A DNA stretch of 64,000 bases from contig CAYXMM010000005.1 in assembly GCA_964465945.1 (NCBI GenBank), positions 30,703 to 94,702 on the forward strand. Reading direction: 5' to 3'. This document shows positions 7,934 through 55,515 of this stretch, one piece after another; the stretch's first letter is position 1, and every line of letters begins with the position of its first letter. This DNA comes from an uncultured Hyphomicrobiales bacterium (GTDB taxonomy: Bacteria > Bacteroidota > Ignavibacteria > Kapaibacteriales > UBA2268). The notes under the pieces are model-generated. The model saw nothing but the letters and a program-made list of their open reading frames with translations. It was not told the origin of the DNA and did no database searches. The position numbers were made by a program, and so were the translations under genes.

Positions 7934-8005
7934 AATTAAAAATGGTCCCTTCGTCTAGCGGTTAGGACATCGCCCTTTCACGGCGGTAACACGGGTTCGA
8001 GTCCC
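7934..8005 (+). tRNA. tRNA-Glu (anticodon UUC); its 3' end is the prophage attachment site
   Basis: Cloverleaf folded by hand: acceptor ggtccct/agggatc (one G-U pair), D stem gtct/ggac, anticodon stem tcgcc/ggcgg with loop cTTTCAc (U33, anticodon TTC, A37), T arm acggg-ttcgagt-cccgt, discriminator A; no encoded CCA. Confidence 0.85.
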
Positions 8006-8010
8006 GTAGG
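7992..8010. repeat. attL core: 19-bp direct repeat tcccgtagggatcacttaa (tRNA-Glu 3' end)
   Basis: Identical 19-mer at 60220-60238; the left copy overlaps the tRNA T-arm/acceptor 3' half. Confidence 0.8.
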
Positions 8011-8014
8011 GATC

Positions 8015-8046
8015 ACTTAATAAGAAGCGAGTTATTTATTTAACTC
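8015..8046 (+). terminator. Intrinsic terminator supplied by the prophage just after the reconstituted tRNA-Glu end
   Basis: aagcgagtt-atttattt-aactcgctt followed by tttttt; an A-run precedes it on the other strand, so it could also end the leftward tape-measure operon. Confidence 0.5.
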
Positions 8047-19328: not shown

Positions 19329-19345
19329 TTTAACCTCTTATTTAG

Positions 19346-19418
19346 TGGCAGGGGCACGACTCGAACGTGCGACCTCTGGCTTATGAAACCAGCGAGCTAC
19401 CAACTGCTCTACCCCGCT
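19346..19418 (-). tRNA. Phage-encoded tRNA-Met (anticodon CAU) inside the tail gene run
   Basis: Reverse complement gives AGCGGGG-TA-GAGC-AGTTGGTA-GCTC-G-CTGGT-TTCATAA-GCCAG-AGGTC-GCACG-TTCGAGT-CGTGC-CCCTGCC-A: canonical D, anticodon (U33-CAT-A37) and T arms; 1-72 pair is an A-C mismatch; no encoded CCA. Confidence 0.65.
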
Positions 19419-25189: not shown

Positions 25190-26137
25190 TTATGCGTTAG
25201 TGTCGTTAATAATATACCCAGCGTTACTCATCAATATTGCTACGGCTGAATAAGTTCTACCGTCAATGATTTTAACATCTTGTGCGTTATCTTTCCAATA
25301 AGTTCTAATCGAAGGTAATCCTTTGTAATTAAATGAATACCCGAAAGATGGAGTGTATAAATCGCCTTTGCCTTGTGCGTTTCTTGGGGAATAACATAAT
25401 ATTGCGTTATCTTCCCAGATATTATTGAAAGCATCACCAGTTGCTGTTTGAATATAACTTCCAGAGCCGACATAAATTTCGATTCGTAAAAGTTCTTTTA
25501 ATTGCTCTACTGTTGGAATACCTGGTTTATTAACTCCAAAAACCGCATCTTTAATCTCTTTATGGTTTTTCAATGAGTTAAAAGCAGAATGCCCTATTAT
25601 CATTACATTAGGGTATTTTCCAATTTTATTTCTTATTGCTTCTTTTGCGGTATCTATTTGTGCAATAGGATGTGAGTCCACATCAGTCCATTGGTCATTT
25701 CCTGTTAAAGTAACTTTGTTGCCTGATGGATAACTTGCTAAACTCTGCAACATATCGGCAATTCTAACTTCATCGCCTAAGTCGATTGCGTCTTTTACAA
25801 CTTTTGTCCCATAAATCTCTAAATCAAGATTTTGACCAGTAGAAGCCGCAATCTCTCTAATATCAAGAGGGTAACCTAAGCCGTGTTCATGTAGGTTAAT
25901 GTCAACTTTACCATAAGAAGTTGGGTCTAACAATTTTTGTTGACCTCTTAACGCTCTTTCTGTATTATAAACTCTAAAATGGTCTTTGCCATAAGAAGGA
26001 ATCATAATTGCTAAATCTGATACATTTACTTGTGGCAGAGCAAATCTACCAACAAAAGCATCATTTGAATATCCAAGTGCGATATTAGTTAAGGAAGTTC
26101 TTTGACCTAACATAAGGTCTGCTATTCTCTTATCCAT
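25190..26137 (-). CDS. Major capsid protein (HK97-fold candidate)
   Basis: 315 aa directly downstream of the prohead protease/scaffold gene. Confidence 0.55.
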   Translation of the reverse strand: MDKRIADLMLGQRTSLTNIALGYSNDAFVGRFALPQVNVSDLAIMIPSYGKDHFRVYNTERALRGQQKLLDPTSYGKVDINLHEHGLGYPLDIREIAASTGQNLDLEIYGTKVVKDAIDLGDEVRIADMLQSLASYPSGNKVTLTGNDQWTDVDSHPIAQIDTAKEAIRNKIGKYPNVMIIGHSAFNSLKNHKEIKDAVFGVNKPGIPTVEQLKELLRIEIYVGSGSYIQTATGDAFNNIWEDNAILCYSPRNAQGKGDLYTPSFGYSFNYKGLPSIRTYWKDNAQDVKIIDGRTYSAVAILMSNAGYIINDTNA

Positions 26138-27314
26138 TGAGACCTCCTCTTAGGGTATTAAATGCAGTTTCAAAATCTACATTATTTTTCACCATAAATT
26201 CTTTGACCATTGCAGTTACAACTGCATCGTTATCAGGATTTTCAAAATCTTGAATAGTTGTAATGTTTGGTGTTTCGGTTGTTCGGTTATAGCTGTTTGC
26301 AAGCAATGGATTTGTAGGCAATGAATTTAATATCTCAACTTTTTTGTTAAAAGCTTCGACATTGTTGATTTTTTTGTCAAGTAAATCTTGAACTTCATAA
26401 TCTTTCATTGCGGGCAGTATTTTACCTGAGTTGATAAACCCACTAACTAAGTTGCTGACTTCAATTGTGGCAATTTGCCCTTTTAATTCTTTGATTTCTT
26501 TTGATAAAGTAGAATTTTGAGTCGTTACCTCAGAATTTACTTTCTCTAATTCAGAAACCTTCGTAGAATAGTCGTTTTTAATTGTGCCGATTTCAACATC
26601 CTTTTGATTGAGAGCAGATTTCAGGTCTGCAACTTGGTCTATCTTCTCATTCAAAAGCTTGCTTAATTCAGCACCAGAATCTTTATCAATTGGCATTGAT
26701 TCTTCTCCTTGATGATTAATTAATGTTTTTTCTCTATTTGAAAGGGCAACATATTTGTAGGATTCTATTTTATCCATATAGTTAGTTGCTTTGAGTTCTT
26801 CTTCTTCTTCTTTGTCTGGCTCGTAGATAGCATCTACAAGTTTGTATTTGAGGGCTTCTTTCGATGTCATCAATCTATCTTCATTCATTATAGATTTTAA
26901 ACCATCGTTATCAAGATTGGTCTTTCTTTTATACACATCAATGATTTGATTTGTGATGTCGTCCAATACTTTACCTTGCTTTTTAAACTCTTCAGCATCA
27001 CCGATTGCTATTGAGTAGGGATTATGAATTAGATATGAAGCAGTTTTTGCAATTAGAGTTTTATGACCTGCGAACGCAATTAATGAAGCAATACTCGCAG
27101 CAAGACCAATGATTTTAATTGTGATTTCATTTGTCTTTGACTTTTCTAATAGTAAATTATAAACCGAATAGCCAGTAAATACACTCCCACCAGGTGAATT
27201 TATAAACACAGTAATCGGTTCGCCCTGTTCGATTTTGCTTAACTGTTCTGAAAGGATTTTGTCGTTAAATCCCCATTCAAAGATTGGTTCTAATATGTAA
27301 ATGCTTTTACTCAT
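26130..27314 (-). CDS. ClpP/S14-like prohead protease fused to a coiled-coil scaffold domain
   Basis: N-terminus INSPGGSVFTGYSVYNLL resembles the ClpP-type peptidase core; C-terminal half is a K/E-rich coiled coil. Confidence 0.7.
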   Translation of the reverse strand: MSKSIYILEPIFEWGFNDKILSEQLSKIEQGEPITVFINSPGGSVFTGYSVYNLLLEKSKTNEITIKIIGLAASIASLIAFAGHKTLIAKTASYLIHNPYSIAIGDAEEFKKQGKVLDDITNQIIDVYKRKTNLDNDGLKSIMNEDRLMTSKEALKYKLVDAIYEPDKEEEEELKATNYMDKIESYKYVALSNREKTLINHQGEESMPIDKDSGAELSKLLNEKIDQVADLKSALNQKDVEIGTIKNDYSTKVSELEKVNSEVTTQNSTLSKEIKELKGQIATIEVSNLVSGFINSGKILPAMKDYEVQDLLDKKINNVEAFNKKVEILNSLPTNPLLANSYNRTTETPNITTIQDFENPDNDAVVTAMVKEFMVKNNVDFETAFNTLRGGLNG

Positions 27315-27346
27315 TTGGCTTGCTCTCTTTTACAAATGCAAGTTTA

Positions 27347-27430
27347 GGGGTATAAAAGGGAAAATTTAAGGGAAGATTTCAAGTAAGATTTCGGGGAAAT
27401 GTTCGGGGAAGATTTCGTTGAAAATTTCCA
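27347..27430. promoter_or_regulatory. Array of ~6 tandem 12-bp direct repeats (consensus GGGGAAGATTTC) in the divergent late-capsid / packaging promoter region
   Basis: gggaaaatttaa gggaagatttc aagtaagatttc ggggaaatgttc ggggaagatttc gttgaaaatttcc read directly from 27358-27429. Confidence 0.5.
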
Positions 27431-27477
27431 AAAATATTCACTTGTTTTGCAACATCAATTTATAAATAGCAGGAATT

Positions 27478-28905
27478 ATGCAAGAAGAAGTAATTAGTTT
27501 AAGAAATAAGATTAAATCTATACCAGATGCTTTGTTAACTGAAATTGGGCTTAATCAAGAGCAACGCTCAAATTTTATTAATTATAAAATCTTTCCGATT
27601 GGACTGATTAAAAAAGCCCCTTGGAATTATAAAAATAATGATGATAAAATTTCTGAGAAATTGCGAAATAATATTAAACGAATTGGTCAAGTCGAAAACG
27701 TCCAAGTGCGAGAACTTGAAGATGGTTATTATGAAATGGTGAATGGTAATCACCGATTAGATGATATGATTGCCTTAGGCAAGGAGTTTATAGTGGCTTA
27801 CGACCACGGCGATATTTCTGAAACTGAAGCTAAACGAATTGCTATTGAGACTAATGAAACAAGATTTGAATCTGACGAAATGAAACTGTCTATTTTACTT
27901 AATGAACTTAAACTTGATTTCAATATAGATGACTTAAAAATTACATTACCTTATTCAGATTTTGAACTTAGAAATATTTCTAATTTTAGTTTGTCAAATA
28001 AAAACTTAGATATTAATTCAGTTGAAGAAGATGATTATTCAGAGGAATTAACTGAAAAACCAAAAACAAAAATTGGTGATTTATTTGAGTTAAACGGGCA
28101 TAGATTATTATGTGGCGATTCAACAAGTGATGATGATGTTGCAAGATTAATGAACGGTAAACTTGCCTCATTAACTCATACTGACCCACCTTATAATGTG
28201 AATTATGCTGAATTAAATCACAACGGGCGACCTCATCAAGGTAAGGATTGGGGTGAATCGTATTGCTCGGCTTGGCAGGACAGTATGAGCGATGATGATT
28301 ATGTACAATTCTTGATTACTTTTATAGGACTTGCTAAAAAATATTCAATCGAATATGCTAATTATTACATTTGGCACGCTACTAAATACTTCCCAGAATT
28401 ATTACATGCTCTGAAAGTTAATGAAATTTCGTTCGACCCAGTTCCGATTATCTGGAAGAAACAAGTCGCACCTTTAACTTTTGCACGTTACGCTCGAATT
28501 TATGAGCCGTGTGTATATGCGGGTAAGGATTCAACTGTTGCTTCTACTATTAATGGACGTTGGTTCGGTCCAGCAAATGAAAATAATGTCTGGGAGATAA
28601 GCAGAGACGGAAATAGGACTTATATTCATCCGACTCAAAAGCCAGTAGCTCTAGCTGCGAGGGCAATTAGAAATTCAAGTTTAATCGGTGAGATTGTGCT
28701 TGATTTATTTTTAGGCAGTGGAACTACCTTAATTGCATCAGACACTTTAGACAGGGTTTGTTTTGGAATGGAAATGGAGCCGAAGTTCTGTGATGGAATT
28801 GTGAAAAGGTTTATTAAATATTGCGAAGATAATAATAAAGAATGTCAAGTTAAACTCAATGGCGAGATTATAACAAAGGAATATTTCGAGGTTGAAAATG
28901 AATAA
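27478..28905 (+). CDS. ParB-like nuclease domain fused to a DNA N6-adenine/N4-cytosine methyltransferase (DPPY class)
   Basis: N-terminal EMVNGNHRLDDMIALG (ParB/Srx GxxR motif); central LTHTDPPYNV catalytic motif IV; FLGSGTT SAM motif near the C-terminus (permuted beta-class MTase). Confidence 0.75.
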   Translation: MQEEVISLRNKIKSIPDALLTEIGLNQEQRSNFINYKIFPIGLIKKAPWNYKNNDDKISEKLRNNIKRIGQVENVQVRELEDGYYEMVNGNHRLDDMIALGKEFIVAYDHGDISETEAKRIAIETNETRFESDEMKLSILLNELKLDFNIDDLKITLPYSDFELRNISNFSLSNKNLDINSVEEDDYSEELTEKPKTKIGDLFELNGHRLLCGDSTSDDDVARLMNGKLASLTHTDPPYNVNYAELNHNGRPHQGKDWGESYCSAWQDSMSDDDYVQFLITFIGLAKKYSIEYANYYIWHATKYFPELLHALKVNEISFDPVPIIWKKQVAPLTFARYARIYEPCVYAGKDSTVASTINGRWFGPANENNVWEISRDGNRTYIHPTQKPVALAARAIRNSSLIGEIVLDLFLGSGTTLIASDTLDRVCFGMEMEPKFCDGIVKRFIKYCEDNNKECQVKLNGEIITKEYFEVENE

Positions 28906-29440
28906 TGAAGATAAAGAATTGAACCCCTCTTGGTATCGGAGAGAAGATGAATCAGACCTTGCTTATGAACTATTTGAGACTTATCGGCTTTTACCTCCGT
29001 CGGATAGAACTTATGTAAATGTGGCAAGGAGACGCACGGACAAAGGTAATGATTATTCTACGATAATTCGGAAGCATGCTAAGCTATATAATTGGAATGA
29101 TAGGGTTCGAGATTGGGATAATCACCTTACCTTTTTAAAGGATAAGCAGATTACTGATTTGCTTGCAGAAGCTAAAATAGAACACCAAGAATTAGCAAGA
29201 GCAGTTAGAGTTTCATTATCAACTCCGTTGAAGTCGTTCGCAAAAAAAATTAACAACGGAGAGAATTTTGATTCAATGTCAATGAAAGAATTGTATAAAT
29301 TATTATTACAATTACCTGATAGATTGAAACGATTACAAGAGATAGAATTTACAGCACTCGGACATGCTACTGAAATTAAAAAACAAGATGTTACTTCAAA
29401 TGGGAATACAATCACTGTTAATTTAATTGATGACCTATGA
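28892..29440 (+). CDS. Terminase small subunit (putative)
   Basis: 182 aa immediately upstream of, and overlapping, the large terminase gene. Confidence 0.45.
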   Translation: MKMNNEDKELNPSWYRREDESDLAYELFETYRLLPPSDRTYVNVARRRTDKGNDYSTIIRKHAKLYNWNDRVRDWDNHLTFLKDKQITDLLAEAKIEHQELARAVRVSLSTPLKSFAKKINNGENFDSMSMKELYKLLLQLPDRLKRLQEIEFTALGHATEIKKQDVTSNGNTITVNLIDDL

Positions 29441-30759
29441 ACCCTAACGTAATAGACACTGTTAATATTCCCAAATCTGGATTTAACGATATTTATCTTC
29501 CACTTTTTGAGGATAATAACAGGACTTTTGTGTTATATGGTGGCAGGGGTTCGGCAAAGTCTGCATTTGCGGCGCAGTATATTATCACAGATTTGATGCA
29601 GAGACCTTATACTAAATGGATATGTATGAGGAAAATCTTCGCAGACATCAAAGACTCTCAATTCGCTACACTTAAATGGGTAATTAGTCATTGGAAATTG
29701 GAAGACTTATTTTATGTAACTCATTCGCCGATGGAGATTACTTGTGTCAAGAATGGCAATAAGATTATATTTAGAGGTTTAGACAAACCATATAAAACTA
29801 AATCAATACTTAATCCCACTTGTGTGTGGTTTGAAGAAGGGAATGAAATCGGATTTGATGAATATACTAAAACCACAACCTCGTTAAGAGGTCCTTCTGG
29901 CTCAAAGTTACGTGAAATAATCACGTTTAATCCAGAGCAAGAGGACGATTGGATTAATGAGTATTTCTTTCCACCGAAAGAGACTTATGAGAAAACTAAT
30001 GAGCCGTATAATTACATTAAAAGCATCAGAGATAATGCTACAATCTTGCATACTACATATAAAGATAACAAGTGGATAAAGGATGATGAGATTAATAAAC
30101 TTGAATCGTTAAAAGATATTGATGATAATTATTATAAGGTTTATACATTAGGTCATTGGGGTGGTGCATTAAAGGGACTGGTCTATACTAATTGGGATAC
30201 TTATGAAACAGAACCGAACGGGCAAGTAGTTTATGGGCTTGACTTTGGTTATAATGATCCTATGGCTTTGGTTAAAGTTACTCGGAAAGAGAATGATTTA
30301 TATGTCCGTGAAATGTTTTATAAGTCTGGCTGGACTACAAGTGAGTTTATTGAGGAGTTACCTAAATTAATTCACGATAAGTATACCGAGATTTATGCTG
30401 ACCACGAGCCAGATAGGATTGAAGAGATTTATAATAAGAATTACAATATTTATCCTGCGGATAAAGGTGCTAATTCAATTAAAAGCGGTATTGATTTTAT
30501 AAAGAGTTTCAAAATACATATTCATAAAGATTCGCATAATTTGATGAGAGAGTTAAAAAGGTATATTTATAAACAAGATAAAAATGGCAGGTCTCTTGAA
30601 TTGCCCGTCGACTTTGAAAATCACTCATTAGATGCTATGCGATATGCAATTAATACTCACGGACGTAAATATTGGCAAAATTCTGCAATAGTTTTGCCTT
30701 CGCTAACGAAAGATAGAAATAAAAGATTTAATAATAACTTTAAACAAGTAGGTTTTTAA
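29437..30759 (+). CDS. Terminase large subunit (PBSX/Terminase_6-like)
   Basis: 440 aa; Walker A VLYGGRGSAKS, C-terminal nuclease-like acidic residues, length typical of TerL. Confidence 0.8.
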   Translation: MNPNVIDTVNIPKSGFNDIYLPLFEDNNRTFVLYGGRGSAKSAFAAQYIITDLMQRPYTKWICMRKIFADIKDSQFATLKWVISHWKLEDLFYVTHSPMEITCVKNGNKIIFRGLDKPYKTKSILNPTCVWFEEGNEIGFDEYTKTTTSLRGPSGSKLREIITFNPEQEDDWINEYFFPPKETYEKTNEPYNYIKSIRDNATILHTTYKDNKWIKDDEINKLESLKDIDDNYYKVYTLGHWGGALKGLVYTNWDTYETEPNGQVVYGLDFGYNDPMALVKVTRKENDLYVREMFYKSGWTTSEFIEELPKLIHDKYTEIYADHEPDRIEEIYNKNYNIYPADKGANSIKSGIDFIKSFKIHIHKDSHNLMRELKRYIYKQDKNGRSLELPVDFENHSLDAMRYAINTHGRKYWQNSAIVLPSLTKDRNKRFNNNFKQVGF

Positions 30760-30760
30760 A

Positions 30761-33001
30761 ATGGAGAATCAAGATAAATTAATATTACCAAGAATTAAAC
30801 AACTCGGCAAGGAATATAAAATTAATTCAAATTCAGTTTCATACTGGAATAGTTTAATTGATAATCCAGACGCTCTTTTAAAACGAATTGGCAAGGATAT
30901 TCAAGTTTATGATGATATGCTTAACGATTCACATCTTTATGCTGTGGTTCAGTCTCGAAAGAGTGGGGTTTTATCGAAAGAATGGGAACTCGACCAGTAT
31001 GATAGTGAGCAGAGTATATATGATTTTGTTGAAGTTGTACTTAATAATTTAGATATTCATGATTGTATTAGAAGTATTTTAGATGCTCCACTATTTGGAT
31101 TTCAACCTATTGAGATTATTTGGGAAGTGATTGACGGGAAGTTAATTCCTGTGAAACTTAATAAACGTCCGAGACAATATTTTAAATTTGATATTGATAA
31201 TAATTTGGTTTTTATTGATGATAATGGCTCAACTGAAATTACTCCAAATGATAAATTTTTAATTCCTCGCTACGAAGCCAGCCGTGATAATCCTTACGGA
31301 ACTCCTTTGCTATCTAAATGTTACTGGTCGATTGTTCTAAAGAATGATGCCCGTAAGTCTTGGTCAGTGTTTATTGAGAAATTTGGTATGCCGTGGGTGA
31401 AAACACTTTATAAATCGCAGAGGTATCAATCTCAAAAAGATGTCGACGATTTACTTGATAGAATTTATAGTTATTCCGCAGATTCTATGTTCGCTTTGCC
31501 TGATGATGTTGAGTTGGATTTAATAAATGGGACTCAAACCTCTTCATCTGAAATTTACAATGCTTTTATTAATAAATGTATGGAAGATGTGAGTGAGGTA
31601 ATCTTAGGGCATACTTCGGCTACTACTTCGACGCCTGGTAAATTAGGGAATGAGAATATGGCTCAAAGTGTGGTAGATAGGATTATAGAGTCAGATATGA
31701 TTTTGGTTGAATCTACTTTTAATACTTTAATTAAAAAAATAGTGGATTTGAACTTTAATACTAATCAATATCCTTATTTTAGATTGGTCGAAGAGCAAGA
31801 TATAAACAAAGATAGAGCCGAGAGAGATGCTATTTTGTATTCAATGGGATTGCGATTCACAGAAGATTACTATGTGCGTGAGTTTAATTATTATAAAGGT
31901 GATTTCACTTTAAGTAATAGCGATAATTTAGGAGATTTAAGCCCAAAAAAGCTTATGAATCCGAGTAATTTTATTAATATATTGAACTCGGACGATAAGG
32001 ATAAGATTGGCGAGAAAGAGCAAGAAGTTACAGACAAATTCATAGAGCATTTATTAGACCCAGATAAGAATGAGACTTTATTTACGGATTTAATCAAGCC
32101 AATTATTGATTATGCTGGCAAAAATAAACTTGATGATTTGAAAAAAAACTATTATAAAGCTTATAGCAAGATAGATGCAAGTGATTTTATTGAAATAATC
32201 GAACGAGCAATTCTCATTATTCAAATTTACGGCTTAAACTCGGTCGATGAAGAAGAAGAAGAGCAAAAAGACAGGTTTAATTACTTCAACAAAGATGATA
32301 TTTCTTTGCAAGATTTAATTTTTGCTTTGGATAAAGAGCCAGAAGAAATTGTTGCTTATTTTAGGTCAAAAGGAGTGAAAATTTCTGATGACTGGCAGGA
32401 TACTTTTAAAATTATCAAACAACACGCATTCACTGTTGCTGGTGTTGTTAAAATGGACTTATTGGTTGACTTTAAGGAGATGATTGAGAAAGCAATCAAA
32501 GAGGGATTAAGTCAAGAGGAGTTTAAGAAGCAGTTAAAGGAGAGATTTAAAGAGAAAGGTTGGCTGAAAGACAAAGATAATAATAAACTCATCGAACCTT
32601 GGAGATTAGATACAATTTACAGAACTAATCTTCAAGACGCTTTTATGCAGGGGCGATGGAACGGACACACTTTAAATATTAAGAATGCACCTTATGTGAT
32701 GTGTAGTTCGGTGATGGATAACTCAACGACATCGGATTGCCGTGCTTTAGACGGGCAAGTCTTCAGAATTGATGACGATTATTTTGCAAAGAATCTGCGA
32801 CCGCCAGGGCATTATAATTGCAGACGGATTACGATTTCTTTGAGTGAAAATTTAGTAAAAAAACGTGGGTATAAGGTAAATAAAGGTATTGATTTTAAAA
32901 ATCATCGTAATCAGAAAGGATTTGATAACAAAGGTAATCCTTGGTTACCTAATAAATCTGATTACCCAAGTGAATTATGGAAAGAATTTGAGAAAAAATA
33001 A
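30761..33001 (+). CDS. Portal protein fused to a Mu F-like minor head/morphogenesis domain
   Basis: 746 aa following TerL; C-terminal …DCRALDGQVF…PPGHYNCRRIT matches the Mu F-like domain signature. Confidence 0.7.
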   Translation: MENQDKLILPRIKQLGKEYKINSNSVSYWNSLIDNPDALLKRIGKDIQVYDDMLNDSHLYAVVQSRKSGVLSKEWELDQYDSEQSIYDFVEVVLNNLDIHDCIRSILDAPLFGFQPIEIIWEVIDGKLIPVKLNKRPRQYFKFDIDNNLVFIDDNGSTEITPNDKFLIPRYEASRDNPYGTPLLSKCYWSIVLKNDARKSWSVFIEKFGMPWVKTLYKSQRYQSQKDVDDLLDRIYSYSADSMFALPDDVELDLINGTQTSSSEIYNAFINKCMEDVSEVILGHTSATTSTPGKLGNENMAQSVVDRIIESDMILVESTFNTLIKKIVDLNFNTNQYPYFRLVEEQDINKDRAERDAILYSMGLRFTEDYYVREFNYYKGDFTLSNSDNLGDLSPKKLMNPSNFINILNSDDKDKIGEKEQEVTDKFIEHLLDPDKNETLFTDLIKPIIDYAGKNKLDDLKKNYYKAYSKIDASDFIEIIERAILIIQIYGLNSVDEEEEEQKDRFNYFNKDDISLQDLIFALDKEPEEIVAYFRSKGVKISDDWQDTFKIIKQHAFTVAGVVKMDLLVDFKEMIEKAIKEGLSQEEFKKQLKERFKEKGWLKDKDNNKLIEPWRLDTIYRTNLQDAFMQGRWNGHTLNIKNAPYVMCSSVMDNSTTSDCRALDGQVFRIDDDYFAKNLRPPGHYNCRRITISLSENLVKKRGYKVNKGIDFKNHRNQKGFDNKGNPWLPNKSDYPSELWKEFEKK

Positions 33002-33438
33002 TGATTGAATTTAATATTAACTCCGATGACCTGAATAATCAATTTGGTAAAATTCAAGGTGAAGTAAATAAAAAGATTGACCTCAAGAAAATATATAGAG
33101 GTGTCGGCGAGGTATTGCAGACGGCTGTTAACTTCCAATTTGAAGAAGAAGGGGCTTATTTAGGTAGGAAATGGGAGCCACTCGCAGCATCAACAATCGA
33201 AAGACGTAAGAAGTTAGGTAAATGGCCAGGTAGCATTATGCAGGTTACTGGGCGATTGAAGTCATCGTTTACTTATTCAATCGTTGGCAATTCGGTGATT
33301 ATAGGCACGAACGTATCTTATGCAAAAAAATTGCACTTTGGAATTGGACGAATGCCAGCTCGCCCTTTATTTACTTCACTGCTAAACGAAGAGACAAAGG
33401 ACGAGATTAAGCATGCTATTTTAAAGGGACTGGTGTAA
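33001..33438 (+). CDS. Virion morphogenesis protein (Mu G / Phage_tail_S-like)
   Basis: 145 aa; WEPLAASTIERRKKLG…IMQVTGRLKSSF matches the W.PL…R…G…tGrL.S signature of Mu gpG-like proteins. Confidence 0.55.
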   Translation: MIEFNINSDDLNNQFGKIQGEVNKKIDLKKIYRGVGEVLQTAVNFQFEEEGAYLGRKWEPLAASTIERRKKLGKWPGSIMQVTGRLKSSFTYSIVGNSVIIGTNVSYAKKLHFGIGRMPARPLFTSLLNEETKDEIKHAILKGLV

Positions 33439-33449
33439 TCTAATATTAT

Positions 33450-33947
33450 TTATACTTTATAAATTAAATTTCCTATTTTTTTAATTTTGTCTCTGATTTG
33501 ATTAAGTAGTTGTAGATTAACATTGTTTAAAGTTTCTTTTTTATTAGGGTTTAAATTTGGTTTTTCATACATGACAGAAATACACCTTTTCAATTCAAAG
33601 CATGAATCTTGAAGTATTTTTAATTTATCTTGGATATCTCCCTTTTGTATATCATAAAATATTGTATAATTTTGCATTGTTTCAATATTCTTTATAATAT
33701 TAATAAATACCTCTTCATATTTACTTAAATCAATGTTAATATAATTATTATTATATATTTGGTTTAGTTCAATTGCCGAATTTGACAGATAATTATAATA
33801 TTTTATTAATGTTTTAAAGTAATAATCATGCTCTCTTATTTTTTTGTTAATTCTAAGATAAATGTAAATTACTGCAATAAAATTTAATAATGATAAAAAA
33901 GAATTAAGTAAATCCCCGTATGTTATATCAGTCAAACAATTCATCAA
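33450..33947 (-). CDS. Small N-terminally membrane-anchored protein; third gene of the GHKL/STAS-like operon
   Basis: 165 aa; N-terminal TM (LLNSFLSLLNFIAVIYIYL), remainder soluble; ATGA start/stop overlap with the upstream gene. Confidence 0.4.
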   Translation of the reverse strand: MMNCLTDITYGDLLNSFLSLLNFIAVIYIYLRINKKIREHDYYFKTLIKYYNYLSNSAIELNQIYNNNYINIDLSKYEEVFINIIKNIETMQNYTIFYDIQKGDIQDKLKILQDSCFELKRCISVMYEKPNLNPNKKETLNNVNLQLLNQIRDKIKKIGNLIYKV

Positions 33948-34321
33948 TTGAGATATTCTCTATTAGCATTTGTAATATATTCATCTATTATTTCCCGAAT
34001 ATTTGAATTTTCCGTTGAAGTAATTATTAAAGTTTTTAAGACTCTGTCGCTTTTATATTTTCTAGACAATTCGCCAAATGATCCATCGTAAAAACTTGAA
34101 GGTCTAGTTAATAAATCGTCTACATTAACTACGAGTTTTACATTATTTTTTTCTGCTTCTAAAAATTTAGGTTCTAATATCGAATTTAAAAACCTTTCAC
34201 CTGAATTCTTCTCACCATTATTTTCTTCATTTAAATACCTCTTCCCAGGTACTTTTGAGAAGTCTGTTGCAATATTTATCATTAGATTATCCATTAAATT
34301 CCCAATAATAATACGTTCCAT
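33944..34321 (-). CDS. STAS-like (DUF4325-type) small protein
   Basis: 125 aa; VNVDDLLTRPSSFYDGSFGEL matches the …vDF.gV…sSF.DE.fg.L signature I recall for STAS-like DUF4325 proteins that partner with GHKL ATPases; overlaps upstream gene by 35 nt. Confidence 0.45.
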   Translation of the reverse strand: MERIIIGNLMDNLMINIATDFSKVPGKRYLNEENNGEKNSGERFLNSILEPKFLEAEKNNVKLVVNVDDLLTRPSSFYDGSFGELSRKYKSDRVLKTLIITSTENSNIREIIDEYITNANREYLN

Positions 34322-35279
34322 TAAAAGGAATGTTTTTTTCTATATACTCATCCTTTTGTGGTTCAGCCAAAATATTATTGGCAAAAATACGCAAATTTTG
34401 AATATTACCATCATTTAATATTTTATTGATAGTTGGTAATCCTCTACCTCTATGTTGTTCTTTTGTTCTTGACAAATTTGCCTCGTTTTTTAATATCATT
34501 TTTAGTTTTTCAGAAGCATTATAACTAATTAAACCTATATATTTTTTTTTATCTTCAATTGTGTTCATAATCCCTTTCCCGTGATCCATAAATACAAATT
34601 GAAATGCTTTTAAGTTGTTGTTGTAAAAAACACTAAGCCACCATTTTTCAGAGGAATTTTGCTCACCAGCATGTTCTGCCGTGTTATCCATTATTTCCGT
34701 AAGAACAGTCATACAATCAACGATTGTATCTTTGTTTATACTAGGAAATTTTGAATTTATAAATTTATAAATTTGTTCTATCAACTCTATGCTTCTATTT
34801 TCATATGCTAAAATTTGAAACATTTCACCAATACTATCATGCACATCAATGCCGGCTCCCTCTTTTGATGTATATTGATGGAAACCTGAATCTGAAATAA
34901 AAGTATCTACATCGTTACTTAAAGGTGATATAAATGAAATAAAATGTCTCTTTTGAGGGTATTTGTAAAACACTGAAACTAAATACATTAAAGTAGATGT
35001 ATCAGTTATACTAACATTTTCAAAACTCAATGCAACATACTTGTTATTGTTTATCAATTTTATTGCTGTATTTATTATTTTTTCAATTTCTTTATAATTT
35101 TGTAATAATTCTAAATTCTCTGGAAACTTTATTTCTTTCTTTTTTAGACTTGTTATAGGTGTTCCAATATTTTCTTGTTGTAATTGCCTTTTATTACTTT
35201 TCTTTTTCCTGTTTTTACGTTTATTTTCTTTTATTCTATTAAATTTCTTCCTTTCATTTGTAGTATGTAATTTTTTCAT
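34287..35279 (-). CDS. GHKL-superfamily ATPase (anti-sigma-factor-kinase/histidine-kinase-like) with a highly basic N-terminal tail
   Basis: 330 aa; MTVLTEIMDNTAEHAG (N-box E…N..H), FMDHGKGI (G1 box D.G.G), HRGRGLPTI (G2 box); N-terminal 40 aa are ~50% K/R. Confidence 0.5.
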   Translation of the reverse strand: MKKLHTTNERKKFNRIKENKRKNRKKKSNKRQLQQENIGTPITSLKKKEIKFPENLELLQNYKEIEKIINTAIKLINNNKYVALSFENVSITDTSTLMYLVSVFYKYPQKRHFISFISPLSNDVDTFISDSGFHQYTSKEGAGIDVHDSIGEMFQILAYENRSIELIEQIYKFINSKFPSINKDTIVDCMTVLTEIMDNTAEHAGEQNSSEKWWLSVFYNNNLKAFQFVFMDHGKGIMNTIEDKKKYIGLISYNASEKLKMILKNEANLSRTKEQHRGRGLPTINKILNDGNIQNLRIFANNILAEPQKDEYIEKNIPFNGTYYYWEFNG

Positions 35280-35441: not shown

Positions 35442-35777
35442 TCACCACTCCCCAGATGCTATTATCGGATATTGCTTTGCTAAATGTGAAACATAAATCC
35501 AACAATCCAAATCGCCCTTGTAAGATATTACTTTGACTTTTACTCGCTGGTAAAAAGACGGAACACCTTCTAATTTATCTAATAAAGCCAGCGTTTTATC
35601 ATCGACTTCATAAACTTCACCTTTGATTTGTCCCTGCCCTTTGATTGCGAATGGAAATTGCGGTCCAGCGTGTAAATCAAACCCTTGTGCTACACCAAAG
35701 ATTGGTTTTAATGGGGAGAGCAACCTGTGATTTGGTTGCCCTTGCTTTAATGTTCCATAAACAAATACTAAATGCAT
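35442..35777 (-). CDS. AIG2/GGCT-fold gamma-glutamyl(amine) cyclotransferase-like protein
   Basis: 111 aa; VFVYGTLKQG motif and downstream GEVYEV…LDKLEG…YQRVKVKV with catalytic Glu, typical AIG2/GGACT. Confidence 0.75.
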   Translation of the reverse strand: MHLVFVYGTLKQGQPNHRLLSPLKPIFGVAQGFDLHAGPQFPFAIKGQGQIKGEVYEVDDKTLALLDKLEGVPSFYQRVKVKVISYKGDLDCWIYVSHLAKQYPIIASGEW

Positions 35778-36211
35778 TTTGTTACCTCTAATTTATTATA
35801 ATATTGTTTTGATAAAAACTCTTTACCTTTCAGCAAATGGTTTAAATATTTTTTACTAGGCTTTAGTCTAAAATCCACAAAGTAATTATTGGCTATGTAA
35901 ACGAAAGCCCATTTATAACCATACTTTGTTTTAACTAACATTTCAATTCGGTTATAATGAAAAGGGCAACCCTCAAATCTATCTAACTTTTTTATTTCGT
36001 TTTTACTTGCTAATTCATAAAGAACCCCTTCGACTTTTTCACCAATCTTATAATGAATATTAGCAAAGCCCTCACCCAATCGAAATGCTTTTTTTGAAAA
36101 TCTAAGTGTAGAATTTTCGATTGTTCCTTTCTCATAGCCAGTAAATTTCACTTGCCTTTCTATCATTCTTTCGACGTTCATATTTGAACCATAAGCGAAG
36201 TAGTAAAACAT
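35768..36211 (-). CDS. GGCT-fold gamma-glutamyl cyclotransferase-like protein (second paralogue)
   Basis: 147 aa; YFAYGSNMNVERM motif and VEGVLYEL…LDRFEG…YNRIEMLV. Confidence 0.75.
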   Translation of the reverse strand: MFYYFAYGSNMNVERMIERQVKFTGYEKGTIENSTLRFSKKAFRLGEGFANIHYKIGEKVEGVLYELASKNEIKKLDRFEGCPFHYNRIEMLVKTKYGYKWAFVYIANNYFVDFRLKPSKKYLNHLLKGKEFLSKQYYNKLEVTKCI

Positions 36212-36441
36212 TAAAGTTCCTCAACAAATTTATACTTGATTAAATCCTCTAAGAAATCTTCGCAGCAGTTAGACCTAATAATAACTGAATTATCTACATA
36301 ACATCTTTTTGCTGTTTCGGACATAAATAAATTAATATTATCTCTAAATCCGAATATTGAAAGTTGATTAAGTTGATTAACAAAATCAACTGGGTTCTGG
36401 GATTTAATTACTCCACCACCTAATAATTTATATTTTTTCAT
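36211..36441 (-). CDS. Small hypothetical protein (candidate substrate/partner of the amidoligase cassette)
   Basis: 76 aa; start overlaps stop of the downstream GGCT gene; Cys-rich middle (RSNCCEDF). Confidence 0.3.
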   Translation of the reverse strand: MKKYKLLGGGVIKSQNPVDFVNQLNQLSIFGFRDNINLFMSETAKRCYVDNSVIIRSNCCEDFLEDLIKYKFVEEL

Positions 36442-36515
36442 TTTATTACCCTTTATTTATTATTTTAAATTTTTCATTATCTAAATATTCACAGTTAATG
36501 CAGTCTGATGAGTTT

Positions 36516-36605
36516 TTACATTCTCATTGCTTCTTCTTTTGTGTATCTTTTTGCTTTCCAACTATTATTATTTTTGTCTACCCAATACCCTTTTTCTAAT
36601 TTCAT
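36516..36605 (-). CDS. Unannotated 29-aa basic peptide ORF (MKLEKGYWVDKNNNSWKAKRYTKEEAMRM) with a strong Shine-Dalgarno sequence
   Basis: AAGGAG 6 nt upstream of the ATG; sits between the amidoligase gene and the 76-aa ORF. Confidence 0.25.
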   Translation of the reverse strand: MKLEKGYWVDKNNNSWKAKRYTKEEAMRM

Positions 36606-36636
36606 TTTAAACTCCTTTTGAGAAAAGAGAGGTTGG

Positions 36637-37566
36637 CTAAGCTGCCAACTCTCTTGTTCTGTTTTGAAAATAATTTATTAAATCGTTGTTTAAAAATCTT
36701 CTTAAGTTTACATCATCAGCATTTTCGATTTCTGTTCGTTTGGAAATCTCAATCAATCTTGCTAAAAATTTTATCCAGTTTGAAATTTTCTCAAAACTTA
36801 CTGAAGCCCCATGTTGTCTAAATTCTACTGAATTTTGTCTCCAAAATGATTGAGTATTTAATTTATAATATCTACTTTGATTTGTTATTAAACTTTCAAT
36901 CTCTCTTAAACTTATTGCATTGTCAATTTTTATTTTATAATTAGCTACTTTCATTGTGTGGCAGTAGCTGTTAGAATTTCCTCTTCTTGATTGTGGCATA
37001 AATCCATCAATCCAAGTTTCTAAGTTTGCATAATTTTTATATAAATTTTTCCAAGTTTCCAATTCAAAGTTCGAAGCATCAAAGTGAATATGAACTCCAC
37101 AAGATTTGTTTGTTTTTGCTTCTAAGCCCCTTGTGATTAAAAGTACTGTTTTAAGTTGTCTTAATCCATCTTCGCCTTGTAATTTTGGTGAAACAATTTC
37201 AAAAGAATTAGCACCTTGAAGTGAAGCGTCCCTTACAATTTTCCAATGGTCTCTTGTTTGGTGATTGTAGCCTTCGGCGTTTGTGTTAATTCCTGCGTTT
37301 CTTAGTTCAGTTTCTAATTCTTGCATTTTAATTCCAAAAGCTTCAATCTCAACTCCAAAAGTATGGTTGAATTGGAAGTTTGTTAATGAAGTGCTTATTC
37401 TTGTGTTAAGTTGTGCCTCAGCCCATTTTTTATGAACGTTGAAAGCAAATCCGTAATTTGTTCCAAGTAATTCAGCAACTTGATTTCTTGTCAATCCCAA
37501 ATCAAAAAGCAATCTCATTTTTGCTGTTTTGTTTAGCGTGCTGTTTATTATTTGTTCTTGTGTCAT
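36637..37566 (-). CDS. Putative amidoligase (Amidoligase_2 / glutamine-synthetase-like COOH-NH2 ligase family)
   Basis: 309 aa; N-terminal FGVEIEAFG motif and overall size fit the Amidoligase_2 family, which Pfam describes as occurring next to AIG2-type cyclotransferases. Confidence 0.55.
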   Translation of the reverse strand: MTQEQIINSTLNKTAKMRLLFDLGLTRNQVAELLGTNYGFAFNVHKKWAEAQLNTRISTSLTNFQFNHTFGVEIEAFGIKMQELETELRNAGINTNAEGYNHQTRDHWKIVRDASLQGANSFEIVSPKLQGEDGLRQLKTVLLITRGLEAKTNKSCGVHIHFDASNFELETWKNLYKNYANLETWIDGFMPQSRRGNSNSYCHTMKVANYKIKIDNAISLREIESLITNQSRYYKLNTQSFWRQNSVEFRQHGASVSFEKISNWIKFLARLIEISKRTEIENADDVNLRRFLNNDLINYFQNRTRELAA

Positions 37567-37760: not shown

Positions 37761-37994
37761 GTGATTTTATTAACTAAAAATTTATTATTTTTGCAAATGA
37801 CATTAACCGAATTAATTTATTCAGATTTAGAGAAAAGGCGACTCTTTTACCTTAATTCAAACGAAGAAGAACTAAGGCAATTATATAGTGAAATCAATAG
37901 CTTTGAAGATGTAAGAGAAGCAAAGTTAATTAAAAAAGAACTTGGATTATTAATTAATTTACTTTATAAGCCGATTAAGATTAAATCAACTTAA
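37761..37994 (+). CDS. Small hypothetical protein
   Basis: 77-aa ORF, the only plus-strand ORF between two minus-strand blocks. Confidence 0.2.
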   Translation: MILLTKNLLFLQMTLTELIYSDLEKRRLFYLNSNEEELRQLYSEINSFEDVREAKLIKKELGLLINLLYKPIKIKST

Positions 37995-38261
37995 TTTTTT
38001 TATTAAAGTTTTATAATTAATTCCTAATTCTTTTGCTATCTTTTGCTTACTAACATTTTTATACTTATCCTGCTTGATTACTCGTTCTACGACTCTGTCG
38101 AAATAAAGCAACGACGGAATATAAATTTGAACTCCGCTATAAAGCTCAATAAGTTTTTTCATTGCATCAATCCCAATAATGTGGGCAATCTCTTGGAGCT
38201 GTTCTTTTGCTCTCAAATCCTCAAATGCTATATTTTCTATTATTTCTTTTTTTATACTCAT
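37986..38261 (-). CDS. Small helix-turn-helix DNA-binding protein
   Basis: 91 aa; C-terminal KQKIAKELGINYKTLIKKL is an HTH. Confidence 0.35.
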   Translation of the reverse strand: MSIKKEIIENIAFEDLRAKEQLQEIAHIIGIDAMKKLIELYSGVQIYIPSLLYFDRVVERVIKQDKYKNVSKQKIAKELGINYKTLIKKLS

Positions 38262-46302: not shown

Positions 46303-46510
46303 TTTTTTCTCTCCACTTATCCAAGTCTTTTTGCCACGTTCTCAACTCGGACTTTAATGGCTCTATATCTGTTTCTAATTGTAAATTTTCCTTAAAAAAA
46401 TCCAAAGTTTTAATAATCTTGGGTAATAACTCCGTTTCGGTTAATACAAACTGCGAGTTAACATCTAGATTGTCAATTTCTCTTTGATAATCAATTTTTT
46501 CAACTTTCAT
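46292..46510 (-). CDS. Small hypothetical protein
   Basis: 72-aa ORF, overlapping starts/stops with neighbours. Confidence 0.25.
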   Translation of the reverse strand: MKVEKIDYQREIDNLDVNSQFVLTETELLPKIIKTLDFFKENLQLETDIEPLKSELRTWQKDLDKWREKNVK

Positions 46511-46947
46511 TTTAACTCCTTTAATTTTTTTGTCATTTCACGTAATTTTTTGTCATATTTAACATTATACCTTTCAGGTGTAGTGTTTATAGTAGTCCGA
46601 TTACGATTGAATAACCTTGCTATATCTTGCTGTTTATGAATACTACTTGTTAGTAAGTCATTTATAATTACTGCTCGTAAATAACATAATTCTAACTTTC
46701 TACTTTTTCCGATTACATCGGACATTTTATAATTGTAAAATTCAACGAATTTTTCGTATTGAGTTAAAAGGTGCGGTTTAACTATACCTTCATTTAAAAG
46801 GTTCAACCTCTCTTTTATAGCAGCTTCAGCGCGTTCCACCTTTAACTTTAAAATGGTAATATCTGCTTCTTTCTTTGCAATTTCAGATTTAAAATCTTTC
46901 ACTTTCTTTTTTAGCTTATTTAAAATCAAATCGTTATATTCTTTCAT
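46507..46947 (-). CDS. Coiled-coil plus DnaA-C-terminal-domain-like helix-turn-helix protein
   Basis: 146 aa; KSRKLELCYLRAVIINDLLTSSIHKQQDIARLFNRNRTTINTTPERY mirrors the DnaA domain IV pattern (R..a.yL.r.lt..S…iG..f.r.HtTV). Confidence 0.4.
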   Translation of the reverse strand: MKEYNDLILNKLKKKVKDFKSEIAKKEADITILKLKVERAEAAIKERLNLLNEGIVKPHLLTQYEKFVEFYNYKMSDVIGKSRKLELCYLRAVIINDLLTSSIHKQQDIARLFNRNRTTINTTPERYNVKYDKKLREMTKKLKELK

Positions 46948-47639
46948 AAGTATGCCTTTATATATTGATTGATTGGTGTAAGTCGCTCGTCTTTTAAATC
47001 CAAAAGAAACTCAATAGCATCCTCACCTTTAATTAATTTATCAGATTTTTCTTTATTTTTTTGCACGTATTTTTTTTGAATTTCTCTTATTTTTTCTCTA
47101 TTTTTTTCGCGATATTCTTTTTGATATTTTTGATATTTTTCTTTATTTTTTTGCACGTATTTTTTTTGAATTTCTTTGTATTTTTCTTTGTTTTTTTCAA
47201 TAGATTTTTTTTGACTTTCTCTGTATTTTTCTTTGTTTTTCCAATAATAAACTCGCCTTGCTCTTTTTCTTCTTTCTTTGACATCATTGAGTTCTTCATT
47301 TGCTAATTTCTCATTATTTTCAAATAAATCAAAAATTGCTTTTTCAGAAAAGCCCTTTGAAAGCATAGTATCTACTAATTCTTTTTTAAGTGCCTCCATC
47401 AAATTAAATATATGCTCCCAATTTTCAATTTCATTTGAAATTTCAAATTCTTTTAAAAAATAAACTTCAAAAAAGTCATTTCTAATACAAATTGCATCTT
47501 TTCTTATCCGATTGTCAAACATAAACCATTCTAAGTTACATATCTGCTCGGACATCTTCAAGTAATCCTTTCCGTAATATTCATTTTTGTATGCTAAACT
47601 TTGAATTTTAGCGCTCAATTCCATTTCTTTTTTATACAT
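46944..47639 (-). CDS. Lys/Glu-rich protein with tandem KNKEKY(K/Q)EIQKKYVQKNKEK repeats
   Basis: 231 aa; nucleotide tandem repeats at about 47047-47100 and 47137-47190. Confidence 0.3.
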   Translation of the reverse strand: MYKKEMELSAKIQSLAYKNEYYGKDYLKMSEQICNLEWFMFDNRIRKDAICIRNDFFEVYFLKEFEISNEIENWEHIFNLMEALKKELVDTMLSKGFSEKAIFDLFENNEKLANEELNDVKERRKRARRVYYWKNKEKYRESQKKSIEKNKEKYKEIQKKYVQKNKEKYQKYQKEYREKNREKIREIQKKYVQKNKEKSDKLIKGEDAIEFLLDLKDERLTPINQYIKAYL

Positions 47640-55284: not shown

Positions 55285-55337
55285 TTGATTTAATCCTAAT
55301 TATTCCTTAAATTGCAATTGTTTTTATTTTCTTTATA

Positions 55338-55467
55338 TTTTCGTTTCGTTTTCGTTTCGTTTTACAAAGTTTTATTATTGTAGAACTATTCCGATAATAC
55401 AAGAAGGTAAATATAAATATATTTTCGTTTCGTTTTCGTTTCTAAAACAAAATTAGGAAACGTTTCC
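55338..55467. promoter_or_regulatory. Operator/promoter region of the CI-Cro switch with repeated GAAACG/CGTTTC half-sites
   Basis: ttttcgtttcgttttcgtttcgtttt (55338-55363), ttttcgtttcgttttcgtttc (55422-55442) and perfect palindrome GGAAACGTTTCC (55456-55467). Confidence 0.5.
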
Positions 55468-55515
55468 GAAACTTCCAAATTATATTTTTAATTTTCTTAA
55501 ATTATTTTTGGTATA

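Follow-up and report, generated by a model that had tools for sequence, protein, structure and literature searches.

The window, by which we mean the whole 64-kb stretch of DNA analyzed here, carries a prophage of ~52 kb with tRNA-Glu at its left end and a tyrosine integrase gene at its right end (Table 1). The prophage possesses a Mu-like head module, with matches to Portal_Mu, Phage_Mu_F, Mu-like_Pro, and Phage_tail_S, a Mu-type portal fused to Mu F in the packaging block, and a Mu gp36-like gene in relatives. We found no close DNA relatives among cultured phages. In the phage collection, the small terminase (TerS) had no match, and the ParB-methyltransferase had matches of only ~32%, in unrelated prophages. 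Since the head/tail and packaging blocks run in opposite directions, the spacer between them is the sole point from which both late operons diverge. The first gene of the leftward late operon encodes a protease/scaffold fusion, and the first gene of the rightward late operon encodes a ParB-methyltransferase. Domain matches agree with the initial annotation, which had placed a protease on the left and a ParB-like methyltransferase followed by the terminase on the right; for the ParB-like part, PF02195 was precomputed on P0005, a protein 99% identical to the ParB-methyltransferase.

Table 1. Features of the prophage and its late junction, with coordinates in the window
Feature	Coordinates	Strand or direction	Description
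tRNA-Glu	7944-8016		Left end of prophage
Head/tail operon	27314 down to ~8.1 kb	leftward	
Protease/scaffold gene	26130..27314	-	ClpP-type prohead protease fused to Mu-like scaffold; Pfam CLP_protease 1.8e-28, Mu-like_Pro 2.4e-5
Spacer	27315-27477		163 bp between protease/scaffold gene and ParB-methyltransferase gene
Predicted -7 box, leftward head/tail operon	27339..27346	-	Reverse complement TAAACTTG; TAnnTTTG with 1 mismatch
Array	27348..27440	+	Eight positions spaced 12 bp, each with a 9-bp core
Core 1	27348		GGGTATAAA, degenerate
Core 2	27360		GAAAATTTA
Core 3	27372..27380	+	GAAGATTTC, perfect; centre 27376; proposed promoter-proximal site, leftward promoter
Core 4	27384		TAAGATTTC
Core 5	27396		GAAATGTTC
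Core 6	27408..27416	+	GAAGATTTC, perfect; centre 27412; proposed promoter-proximal site, rightward promoter
Core 7	27420		GAAAATTTC
Core 8	27432		AAATATTCA, degenerate
Predicted -7-like box, rightward packaging operon	27442..27449	+	TTGTTTTG; TAnnTTTG with 1 mismatch
ParB-methyltransferase gene	27478..28905	+	ParB-N-like domain fused to N6/N4 DNA methyltransferase; Pfam N6_N4_Mtase 2.3e-23; PHROG ParB-like families
Packaging block	27478 to 33438	rightward	ParB-methyltransferase, TerS, Terminase_3 TerL, portal, Mu G-like protein
TerS gene	28898..29440	+	phrog_6299; N-terminal three-helix HTH, then long helix
Mor/C-like gene	37986..38261	-	91-aa putative Mor/C-like late transcriptional activator, candidate array binder; phrog_836 'late transcriptional activator', E 6.8e-7
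Early genes	~54.7 to 33.4 kb	leftward	RecT, YqaJ, helicases, DnaB, VRR-NUC, amidoligase, GGACT
Repressor gene	55516-56256		S24 CI-like repressor
Integrase gene	58912-60084		Tyrosine integrase; right end of prophage

Within the spacer, we found seven to eight 12-bp units in one register, at 27347-27440 of the window. TRF called 27358-27428 with period 12, 5.9 copies, 77% matches, and consensus GGGAAGATTTCG, and the lag-12 self-match reached 73% in the best 48-bp window of the spacer, a value equaled by none of 500 shuffles of the 163-bp sequence with all lags from 5 to 24 allowed. TRF and lag-12 autocorrelation together bear out the tandem 12-bp repeats that had been reported between the divergent operons, and the array is real. 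It spans ~84-94 bp and so does not fill the intergenic region, contrary to the first description. The units are indeed tandem, but they are not plain direct repeats, since each contains a dyad-symmetric, near-palindromic 9-bp core (GAArwTTTC). The same cores divide the earlier argument from the 12-bp phasing: the tandem stacking still points to cooperative binding of multiple copies, while the case against a palindromic operator falls away. Unit types are mirrored within the array, with GAAAATTT(A/C) lying 25 bp and GAAGATTTC 37 bp from each anchor, where the anchor for all distances given here is the G of each predicted -7 box.

A motif search over the 64-kb window showed that the unit is not enriched outside the array. 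The 12-mer consensus with up to 2 mismatches gave 10 matches against 4.0 +/- 1.8 expected, three of them in the array and the rest scattered singletons. Two further core copies, GAAGATTTC at 36253 and a unit with 2 mismatches at 28877, were set aside because both lie within CDS and are at chance level. Since the spacer is the only divergence point of the late operons, however, the uniqueness of the motif cannot by itself separate a packaging site from late-promoter control. An RNA element was also considered and rejected, as the single-strand fold is weak (-11.2 kcal/mol, z -2.7) and its centroid unstructured; Rfam gave no match across 26800-28000 at E up to 1.

Searching with the methyltransferase, TerS, and TerL and looking up homologs, we collected ~20 independent junctions from viral contigs, metagenomes, and Kapaibacteria/Bacteroidota genomes. 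NCBI places Kapaibacterium within Bacteroidota. The junctions share an architecture in which head genes run leftward and (ParB-x), TerS, TerL, and portal run rightward, and all ~20 relatives possess the phrog_6299 TerS. Strong 12-bp arrays, whose unit sequences are unrelated among lineages, were found in L026 (TTGCAGAARAAT x9, copies 92% identical), L002 (ATCCCCAAACAA x4.3, copies perfect at 100%), L098 (GTGACAAGAGTT x4 plus TTGCAAAGGATT x5), L192 (GTCAAATCGTCC x5-6), L183 (GTSATATGAC-type x6, plus a second 11-bp array x9), and L178 (ATGAAGATTTCA ATGAAATTTTCA AAGAAGATTTCA). Phasing at 12 bp is weaker in L024, L025, and L191; arrays of 13-bp units are present in L096, L189, L199 (x11), L202 (x11), and L204 (x10); and L059, L180, and L186 have one or two palindromes and no array. 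L003 exhibits no significant periodicity, its units being degenerate and positionally homologous to those of the window. An exact 16-mer scan of viral contigs with the conserved box returned 34 matches, which were real only for three known relatives, and the contigs of further TerS relatives from a large protein database end before the junction.

The spacer of L001 has collapsed. This close relative therefore lacks the repeats, an outcome that had been named beforehand as speaking against binding sites, and formally it does so. It is nevertheless no clean counter-example, since its protease start codon (ATG to ACG) and its promoter box have both been lost and the locus looks defective. The closest informative relative is L178, whose methyltransferase, TerL, and TerS are 79%, 76%, and 68% identical to those of the window phage. 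L178 keeps GAAGATTTC/GAAATTTTC cores and the 12-bp spacing, and its linker has changed from GGG to AAT. We conclude that the core and the spacing are under selection and that the linker is not. In L024, both half-sites differ from those of the window clade by a symmetric change (GAAAnTTTC to GACAnTGTC), as expected of a two-fold symmetric binder.

We predicted an outward-facing promoter box on either side of the array by comparison with the -7 consensus of Bacteroides, TAnnTTTG (PMC4747536); the left box precedes the protease start codon by 24 nt, and the right box precedes the methyltransferase start codon by 28 nt. Of the 20 junctions, 11 have an exact TAnnTTTG at 28-40 nt upstream of the leftward start codon, where shuffles gave a mean of 0.8 and at most 4. 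On the rightward side, the TTTGYA part alone is enriched (11/20 junctions, mean 2.2), so the rightward promoters are non-canonical; the rightward box of the window is non-canonical in having no A at position 2. TTGTTTTGCA, which spans this box, shows no change between the window and three of four aligned relatives, and L003 departs from it at a single base. The same alignment of close relatives shows conserved flanking boxes and a variable centre. On neither side does the window have a TTTG 19-21 bp upstream of the -7 box; the array fills this zone, reaching within 13-25 bp of both -7 boxes and covering the expected -33 zones. The missing -33 TTTG fits activator dependence. A sigma-70 scan found no promoter-like site within the spacer, and the TTGCA boxes lack the -24 GG expected of a sigma-54 promoter, so that we discarded this reading.

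The position of the cores relative to these boxes appears to be fixed. The centres of the two perfect GAAGATTTC cores of the window lie exactly 37 bp from the nearer anchor, and the same distance is found for two GAAGATTTC cores in L178, two GACATTGTC cores in L024, and the outer cores of L003. In L059, a single perfect 15-bp palindrome, TGTGAAAGTTTCACA, is 37 bp from both anchors at once. L186, a Ca. Kapaibacterium prophage without an array, has inverted-repeat ACAnTGT cores inside 15-nt windows 37 bp from the anchors, with core centres at 38 and 37 bp by manual count. If transcription starts ~6 nt past the box G, as we infer, the promoter-proximal sites would be centred near -43. The composite motif of core, ~25 nt, and -7 box gives 8 matches in the window against a shuffle mean of 4.3; it is present at both junction promoters, and the other six matches are no more than chance.

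The distance between the two anchors is 74 in L059, 86 in L024, 98 in L178, 110 in the window and L003, 122 in L002 and L192, and 194 in L098, so that eight lineages follow 74+12n with n=0-10, although among five close relatives multiples of 12 are expected from gain and loss of whole units alone. L096, with 13-bp units, has a distance of 126, or 74+4x13. L002, L192, L098, and L096 have unrelated units and their boxes were chosen independently, and the chance of a four-way fit is ~(1/12)^3 x 1/13; the unit register of L002 is ambiguous relative to the 37-bp mark, and most 13-bp lineages do not fit 74+13n with boxes as chosen.

This geometry bears on whether the array has a function at all. Replication slippage in the AT-rich spacer might have generated a minisatellite without function; this could account for the identical copies in several relatives (100% in L002, 92% in L026), which imply recent expansion, and other tandem repeats lie nearby in L002 and L183. 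However, more than 12 lineages whose unit sequences are unrelated have repeats at this same position with a unit length of 12-13 bp, the window and L178 retain a common core and spacing while the linker drifts, and the phasing of the array is fixed relative to both promoters. We find a minisatellite hardly credible.

The initial annotation had proposed two kinds of binder, and one of these, centromere-like binding by the adjacent ParB-domain protein, did not hold up. The gene adjoins the array, and ParB-fold proteins direct or activate phage DNA-modifying enzymes (PMC13229309), so the repeats might be parS-like loading sites for the ParB-methyltransferase. Nevertheless, L204 possesses ~ten 13-bp units directly upstream of terS without a ParB or methyltransferase gene, L059 keeps its site with the methyltransferase cut down to a 25-codon stub, and in L201 the methyltransferase is fragmented. 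Across phages with unrelated repeat units, the protein remains 57-79% identical. Pfam and PHROG detect its ParB N-terminal fold and methyltransferase domain but no HTH DNA-binding domain, which phage ParB-fold partners of DNA-modifying enzymes likewise lack (PMC13229309), and the units are 12-bp tandem repeats rather than 16-bp parS. We found no short motif common to the repeat units of different phages that could serve as a methylation target. Judging from the relatives, its gene is accessory and dispensable for persistence of the array, and we consider a parS-like role highly improbable.

We had favored TerS as the binder before the geometry analysis, which led us to rank it second to an activator. 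With TerS as the binder, the array would be a pac (pacL-like) site: the DNA would wrap around a ring-shaped TerS, each HTH reading one 12-bp unit, and the genome would thereby be marked for the first cut by TerL, with possible autoregulation of the overlapping promoters by TerS. No other sequence-specific DNA-binding protein is known in the conserved late module, and the phrog_6299 TerS lies beside every array junction, even where TerL belongs to a different family (L002, L191) or ParB is missing (L204, L059). The N-terminal HTH of TerS is predicted confidently, and its putative recognition helix is the most variable part of the protein; structure searches with TerS gave generic LuxR/sigma-4-type HTH matches only, and its sequence profile retrieved nothing useful from the PDB. 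The repeats adjoin the terminase genes, standing at the head of the methyltransferase-TerS-TerL operon in the window and immediately before terS in L204 and L059, and SPP1 pac consists of direct repeats across the terS promoters. Copy numbers of up to 9-11 are near TerS ring sizes, and the 13-bp period clusters among a long-TerS subgroup. Dividing ring circumference by subunit number gives ~11-13 bp per subunit at the DNA axis, an estimate from a ~90 Angstrom diameter (PMC4737164). The contig of the 99%-identical phage L177 stops inside the array, as a packaging site might predict, although assembly branching explains this equally well.

On the other hand, a pac site gives no reason for a fixed distance of 37 bp to both -7 boxes, and it sits poorly with the single midway palindrome of L059 and the two cores of L186 at 38 and 37 bp. 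The dyad cores and the symmetric change from GAAA/TTTC to GACA/TGTC fit a two-fold binder rather than a cyclic ring, whose HTHs all point the same way. Between the window and L178, which have the same repeat core, identity is only 52% over the TerS HTH core and 68% over the whole of TerS. The sample is small; it also includes L199 and L202, whose TerS HTHs are fairly similar (~62%, manual count) and whose repeat units are unrelated. TerS of pac phages usually binds DNA weakly and with unclear specificity (PMC9611059). Together, these findings make a pac site unlikely.

We think it still less likely that the array is a dual-purpose lattice, combining late-promoter control with a pac site that has one 12-/13-bp unit per TerS ring subunit. 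If it were, the long-disputed 'nucleosome-like' model, with DNA wrapped around TerS, would gain a natural substrate defined by its sequence, and the DNA would have to be underwound or superhelically wrapped, since the 12-bp period is not helical. More generally, were TerS the binder, these arrays would make TerS-DNA recognition directly testable, a question that has been called unresolved (PMC9611059).

Given the Mu-like head module of the prophage, a late activator of the Mor/C type is the expected biology, and the prophage encodes a candidate (Table 1). Besides its phrog_836 match, this protein matches Pfam Mor at E 0.0027, below the curated cut-off, and HTH_8 (Fis-type HTH) at a sub-threshold E of 0.0012, and in a PDB profile search it aligns to Mu Mor (1rr7) over the GGQVYIP motif at E 0.34. 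Its N-terminal half is acidic and contains the G.Q.YIP motif, and its basic C-terminal part contains the HTH KQKIAKELGINYKTLIKKL. Small size, an acidic N-terminal half, and a C-terminal HTH that is basic characterize the Mor/C proteins (PMC2582627; bioRxiv 10.1101/2025.05.02.651988), and Mor and C bind as tetramers that touch two neighbouring major grooves (bioRxiv 10.1101/2025.05.02.651988). The site of Mu C is a 16-bp imperfect dyad centred at -43.5, overlapping the -35 region of late promoters that have no good -35 (PMC2582627).

Among all ORFs of the fetched loci, an HMM search detected Mor-like genes in just three places, the window and the contigs of L178 and L026, most loci extending too short a distance to include the gene; scans of viral contigs with the Mor-like alignment and with P0126 returned no new lineages. 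P0128, the L178-lineage ortholog, is encoded at a syntenic position on the contig with the L178 array and is 67% identical overall to the window's protein. Across the HTH, KYKNVSKQKIAKEL-[G/R]I[N/S]x[K/R]TLxKKL, 19 of 25 residues are identical (~76%, manual count), including 14/14 in the first helix, a conservation that fits the GAAGATTTC core common to L178 and the window. P0126, the L026-lineage ortholog (L099 10932-11216), is 26% identical, with a very different HTH and the unrelated unit TTGCAGAARAAT. This covariation of activator and core comes from a small sample in which L178 is the one relative sharing the GAAGATTTC core.

Small palindromic units in tandem are also typical of ribbon-helix-helix repressors and of plasmid centromere/operator arrays (MetJ, omega, ParR-parC). 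The array might thus be an operator stack for another regulator, such as the S24 CI-like repressor or a small ribbon-helix-helix protein, which would cover the -33 regions of both late promoters and thereby keep them silent in the lysogen. The array does cover the expected -33 zones of both promoters, and the immunity region contains TTTCG repeats and a palindrome, GGAAACGTTTCC, with a GAAA/TTTC half-site in common with the late array. At 30% G+C, however, so short a half-site is common in the genome, and the immunity repeats are spaced 11 bp (5+6) rather than 12. A search of the conserved late module, which was not exhaustive, found no ribbon-helix-helix gene. Moreover, a fixed position at ~-43 is the classic position of an activator, and the non-canonical rightward -7 boxes suggest activator dependence. 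We regard an operator stack as quite improbable.

Taken together, our findings lead us to favor, with modest confidence, the reading in which the array is a stack of activator sites shared by two divergent late promoters, probably read by the Mor/C-like protein. Late-activator binding was the other option of the initial annotation, and it gains support from the fixed position near -43 at both predicted promoters and from the encoded activator candidate. In this temperate prophage with a Mu-like head, from a Bacteroidota (Kapaibacteria-type) host, the array would act as shared upstream control for the head/tail operon on the left and the ParB-methyltransferase/TerS/TerL/portal operon on the right. 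The 9-bp dyad core of each 12-bp unit would bind one symmetric unit of a phage-encoded activator, most likely the 91-aa Mor/C-like protein. The two best cores, 37 bp upstream of the -7 boxes, would lie where, at promoters whose upstream element is weak, Mu C/Mor contact RNA polymerase. The inner units would keep the two promoter-proximal sites in phase and would probably also let the protein load cooperatively, so that one protein-DNA complex could switch on both late operons together. Here the start sites, the identity of the binder, and activation as opposed to repression are all inferred from sequence.

The activator logic itself is the known, Mu-like part of this proposal. As far as the literature we searched goes, the 12-bp multi-site lattice, the 74+12n spacing, and the Bacteroidota promoter context have not been described. 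If the activator reading is right, a group of temperate phages of uncultured Bacteroidota/Kapaibacteria runs both late operons from one stack of activator sites, in which the unit sequence diversifies fast while its length of 12-13 bp and its position relative to both promoters stay fixed, and in which the distance between the promoters shifts in whole units only (74+12n). The Mu Mor/C paradigm would then extend to the -7/-33 promoter type and to a cooperative, multi-site architecture, and a simple sequence signature would point to late promoters and activator specificities in metagenomic phages. Activator HTHs and cores that may form cognate pairs are already at hand for testing, namely those of the window and L178 with GAAGATTTC and that of L026 with TTGCAGAARAAT.

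Repeated recognition elements of terminases upstream of or within terminase genes, as the array would be on the pac reading, are known from lambda cosB (3 R-sites of 16 bp and an IHF site) and P1 pac (7 hexamers, with Dam sites flanking the cut), but neither forms a 12-bp lattice or is tied to divergent promoters. Closer in appearance are the pac regions of SPP1 and SF6 (pacL, boxes a/b/c; G1P), where direct repeats also overlap the promoters of the terminase operon, AT runs are split by G/C pairs, and the adjoining TerS has an N-terminal HTH. The SPP1 repeats, however, are few, irregularly spaced, and run into terS, whereas the array described here is a regular 12-bp lattice phased to promoter boxes and lies 1.5 kb upstream of terS with the methyltransferase gene between. 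Many short tandem repeats around or across a promoter are likewise found in R1 parC/ParR and the pSM19035 omega-heptads, with units of 7-11 bp in up to ~10 copies to which small dimers bind cooperatively. Ribbon-helix-helix proteins use those arrays for plasmid partition and autorepression, while the present one stands at the start of the late operons in an integrated prophage with no ribbon-helix-helix gene or partition ATPase nearby.

The system that the array resembles most in its proposed mechanism is that of Mu Mor/C. Mu-type head genes (portal, Mu F, protease/scaffold, gp36, G-like) are common to both, and the candidate activator here resembles those of Mu in its small size, acidic N-terminal half, G.Q.YIP motif, and C-terminal HTH, although it is shorter (91 aa) and only weakly similar in sequence. 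In both, a dyad site at ~-43 overlaps an upstream promoter element that is poor at these promoters, a feature that is predicted in our case. Mu transposes, whereas this prophage integrates by means of a tyrosine integrase. Mu also has one 16-bp dyad per promoter, and its promoters are of the sigma-70 -10/-35 type; here, 9-bp cores recur every 12 bp in 1 to ~10 copies, and two divergent promoters of the Bacteroidota -7/-33 type would share the stack. Only L059, with its one palindrome, and L186, with two, resemble the single-dyad layout of Mu.

The ParB-methyltransferase gene, the first gene of the rightward packaging operon, is reduced or lost in three of the related phage loci. It has shrunk to an in-frame stub of 25 codons in L059 (3899-3980), lies in fragments in L201 (2004-2692), and is absent from L204 (2409-2546), while the remaining module is intact in all three despite these changes. 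These findings indicate that the ParB-methyltransferase gene is a dispensable accessory of the packaging operon.

The junction between this gene and the leftward protease gene, which carries the late array of 12-bp repeats, also varies among relatives. At locus L001 (500-585), the junction has shrunk to ~50 bp and lacks both the array and the leftward promoter box, and the protease start codon has changed from ATG to ACG; L001 is probably a decaying copy. L183 (2900-3000), together with L184 and L185, possesses a second array of 11-bp units, with four copies of TTTAAACAAGA followed by five of TTTAAAAGAAA, which adjoins the called methyltransferase start codon and possibly belongs to the 5' untranslated region; upstream of it is an array of 12-bp units with GTCATATGAC palindromes. 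In L177, a 99%-identical phage from a different sample, the assembled contig stops within the array (1-50, equivalent to approximately window position 27386), which could reflect an assembly broken by copy-number polymorphism or, alternatively, a physical DNA end. Elsewhere, a head-module ORF of 103 aa in the related locus L002 contains a perfect in-frame 15-bp tandem repeat (1273-1339; 4.5 copies) encoding SEELK repeats, which shows ongoing tandem duplication in these genomes.

Several other features of the prophage are listed in the table. The tRNA-Glu gene is a likely integration target, and the strong 45/90-bp tandem repeats (TRF score 276) are probably the iterons of the prophage replication origin. 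The Amidoligase_2 and GGACT genes are kept in the L178 lineage, the closest informative relative (L209 3995-5960). The immunity region contains two sets of TTTTCGTTTCG repeats and the perfect palindrome GGAAACGTTTCC; the GAAA/TTTC half-site there is similar to the late-array core, a likeness that hints faintly that the CI-like repressor might also contact the late array.

Positions of further prophage features
Feature	Window position	Location or description
tRNA-Glu	7944-8016	left prophage boundary
tRNA-Met	19345-19418	within tail-gene region
DUF4325 STAS-like protein, then phrog_3364 protein	33944-35279	early-operon end, adjoining packaging block
Amidoligase_2 and two GGACT (gamma-glutamyl cyclotransferase-like) genes	35442-37566	directly downstream of Mor-like gene
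ORF with weak match to DnaA C-terminal HTH	46507-46947	beside 45/90-bp repeats
45/90-bp tandem repeats	47045-47240	within or adjoining ORF 46944-47639
Immunity region	55300-55480	flanked by leftward Cro-side ORF and CI-like repressor
Palindrome	55457-55468	in immunity region
S24 CI-like repressor	55516-56256	
Integrase	58912-60084	opposite prophage end from tRNA-Glu

The array core GAAGATTTC (window 27372-27380) is nearly identical to a segment of AGAGAAGATTTATCTGAAGTCG, the 22-mer that genetic work defined as the pac site of P22 (quoted in PMC9611059). Since the small terminases (TerS) of P22 and of the window phage are unrelated, this likeness is probably a coincidence.
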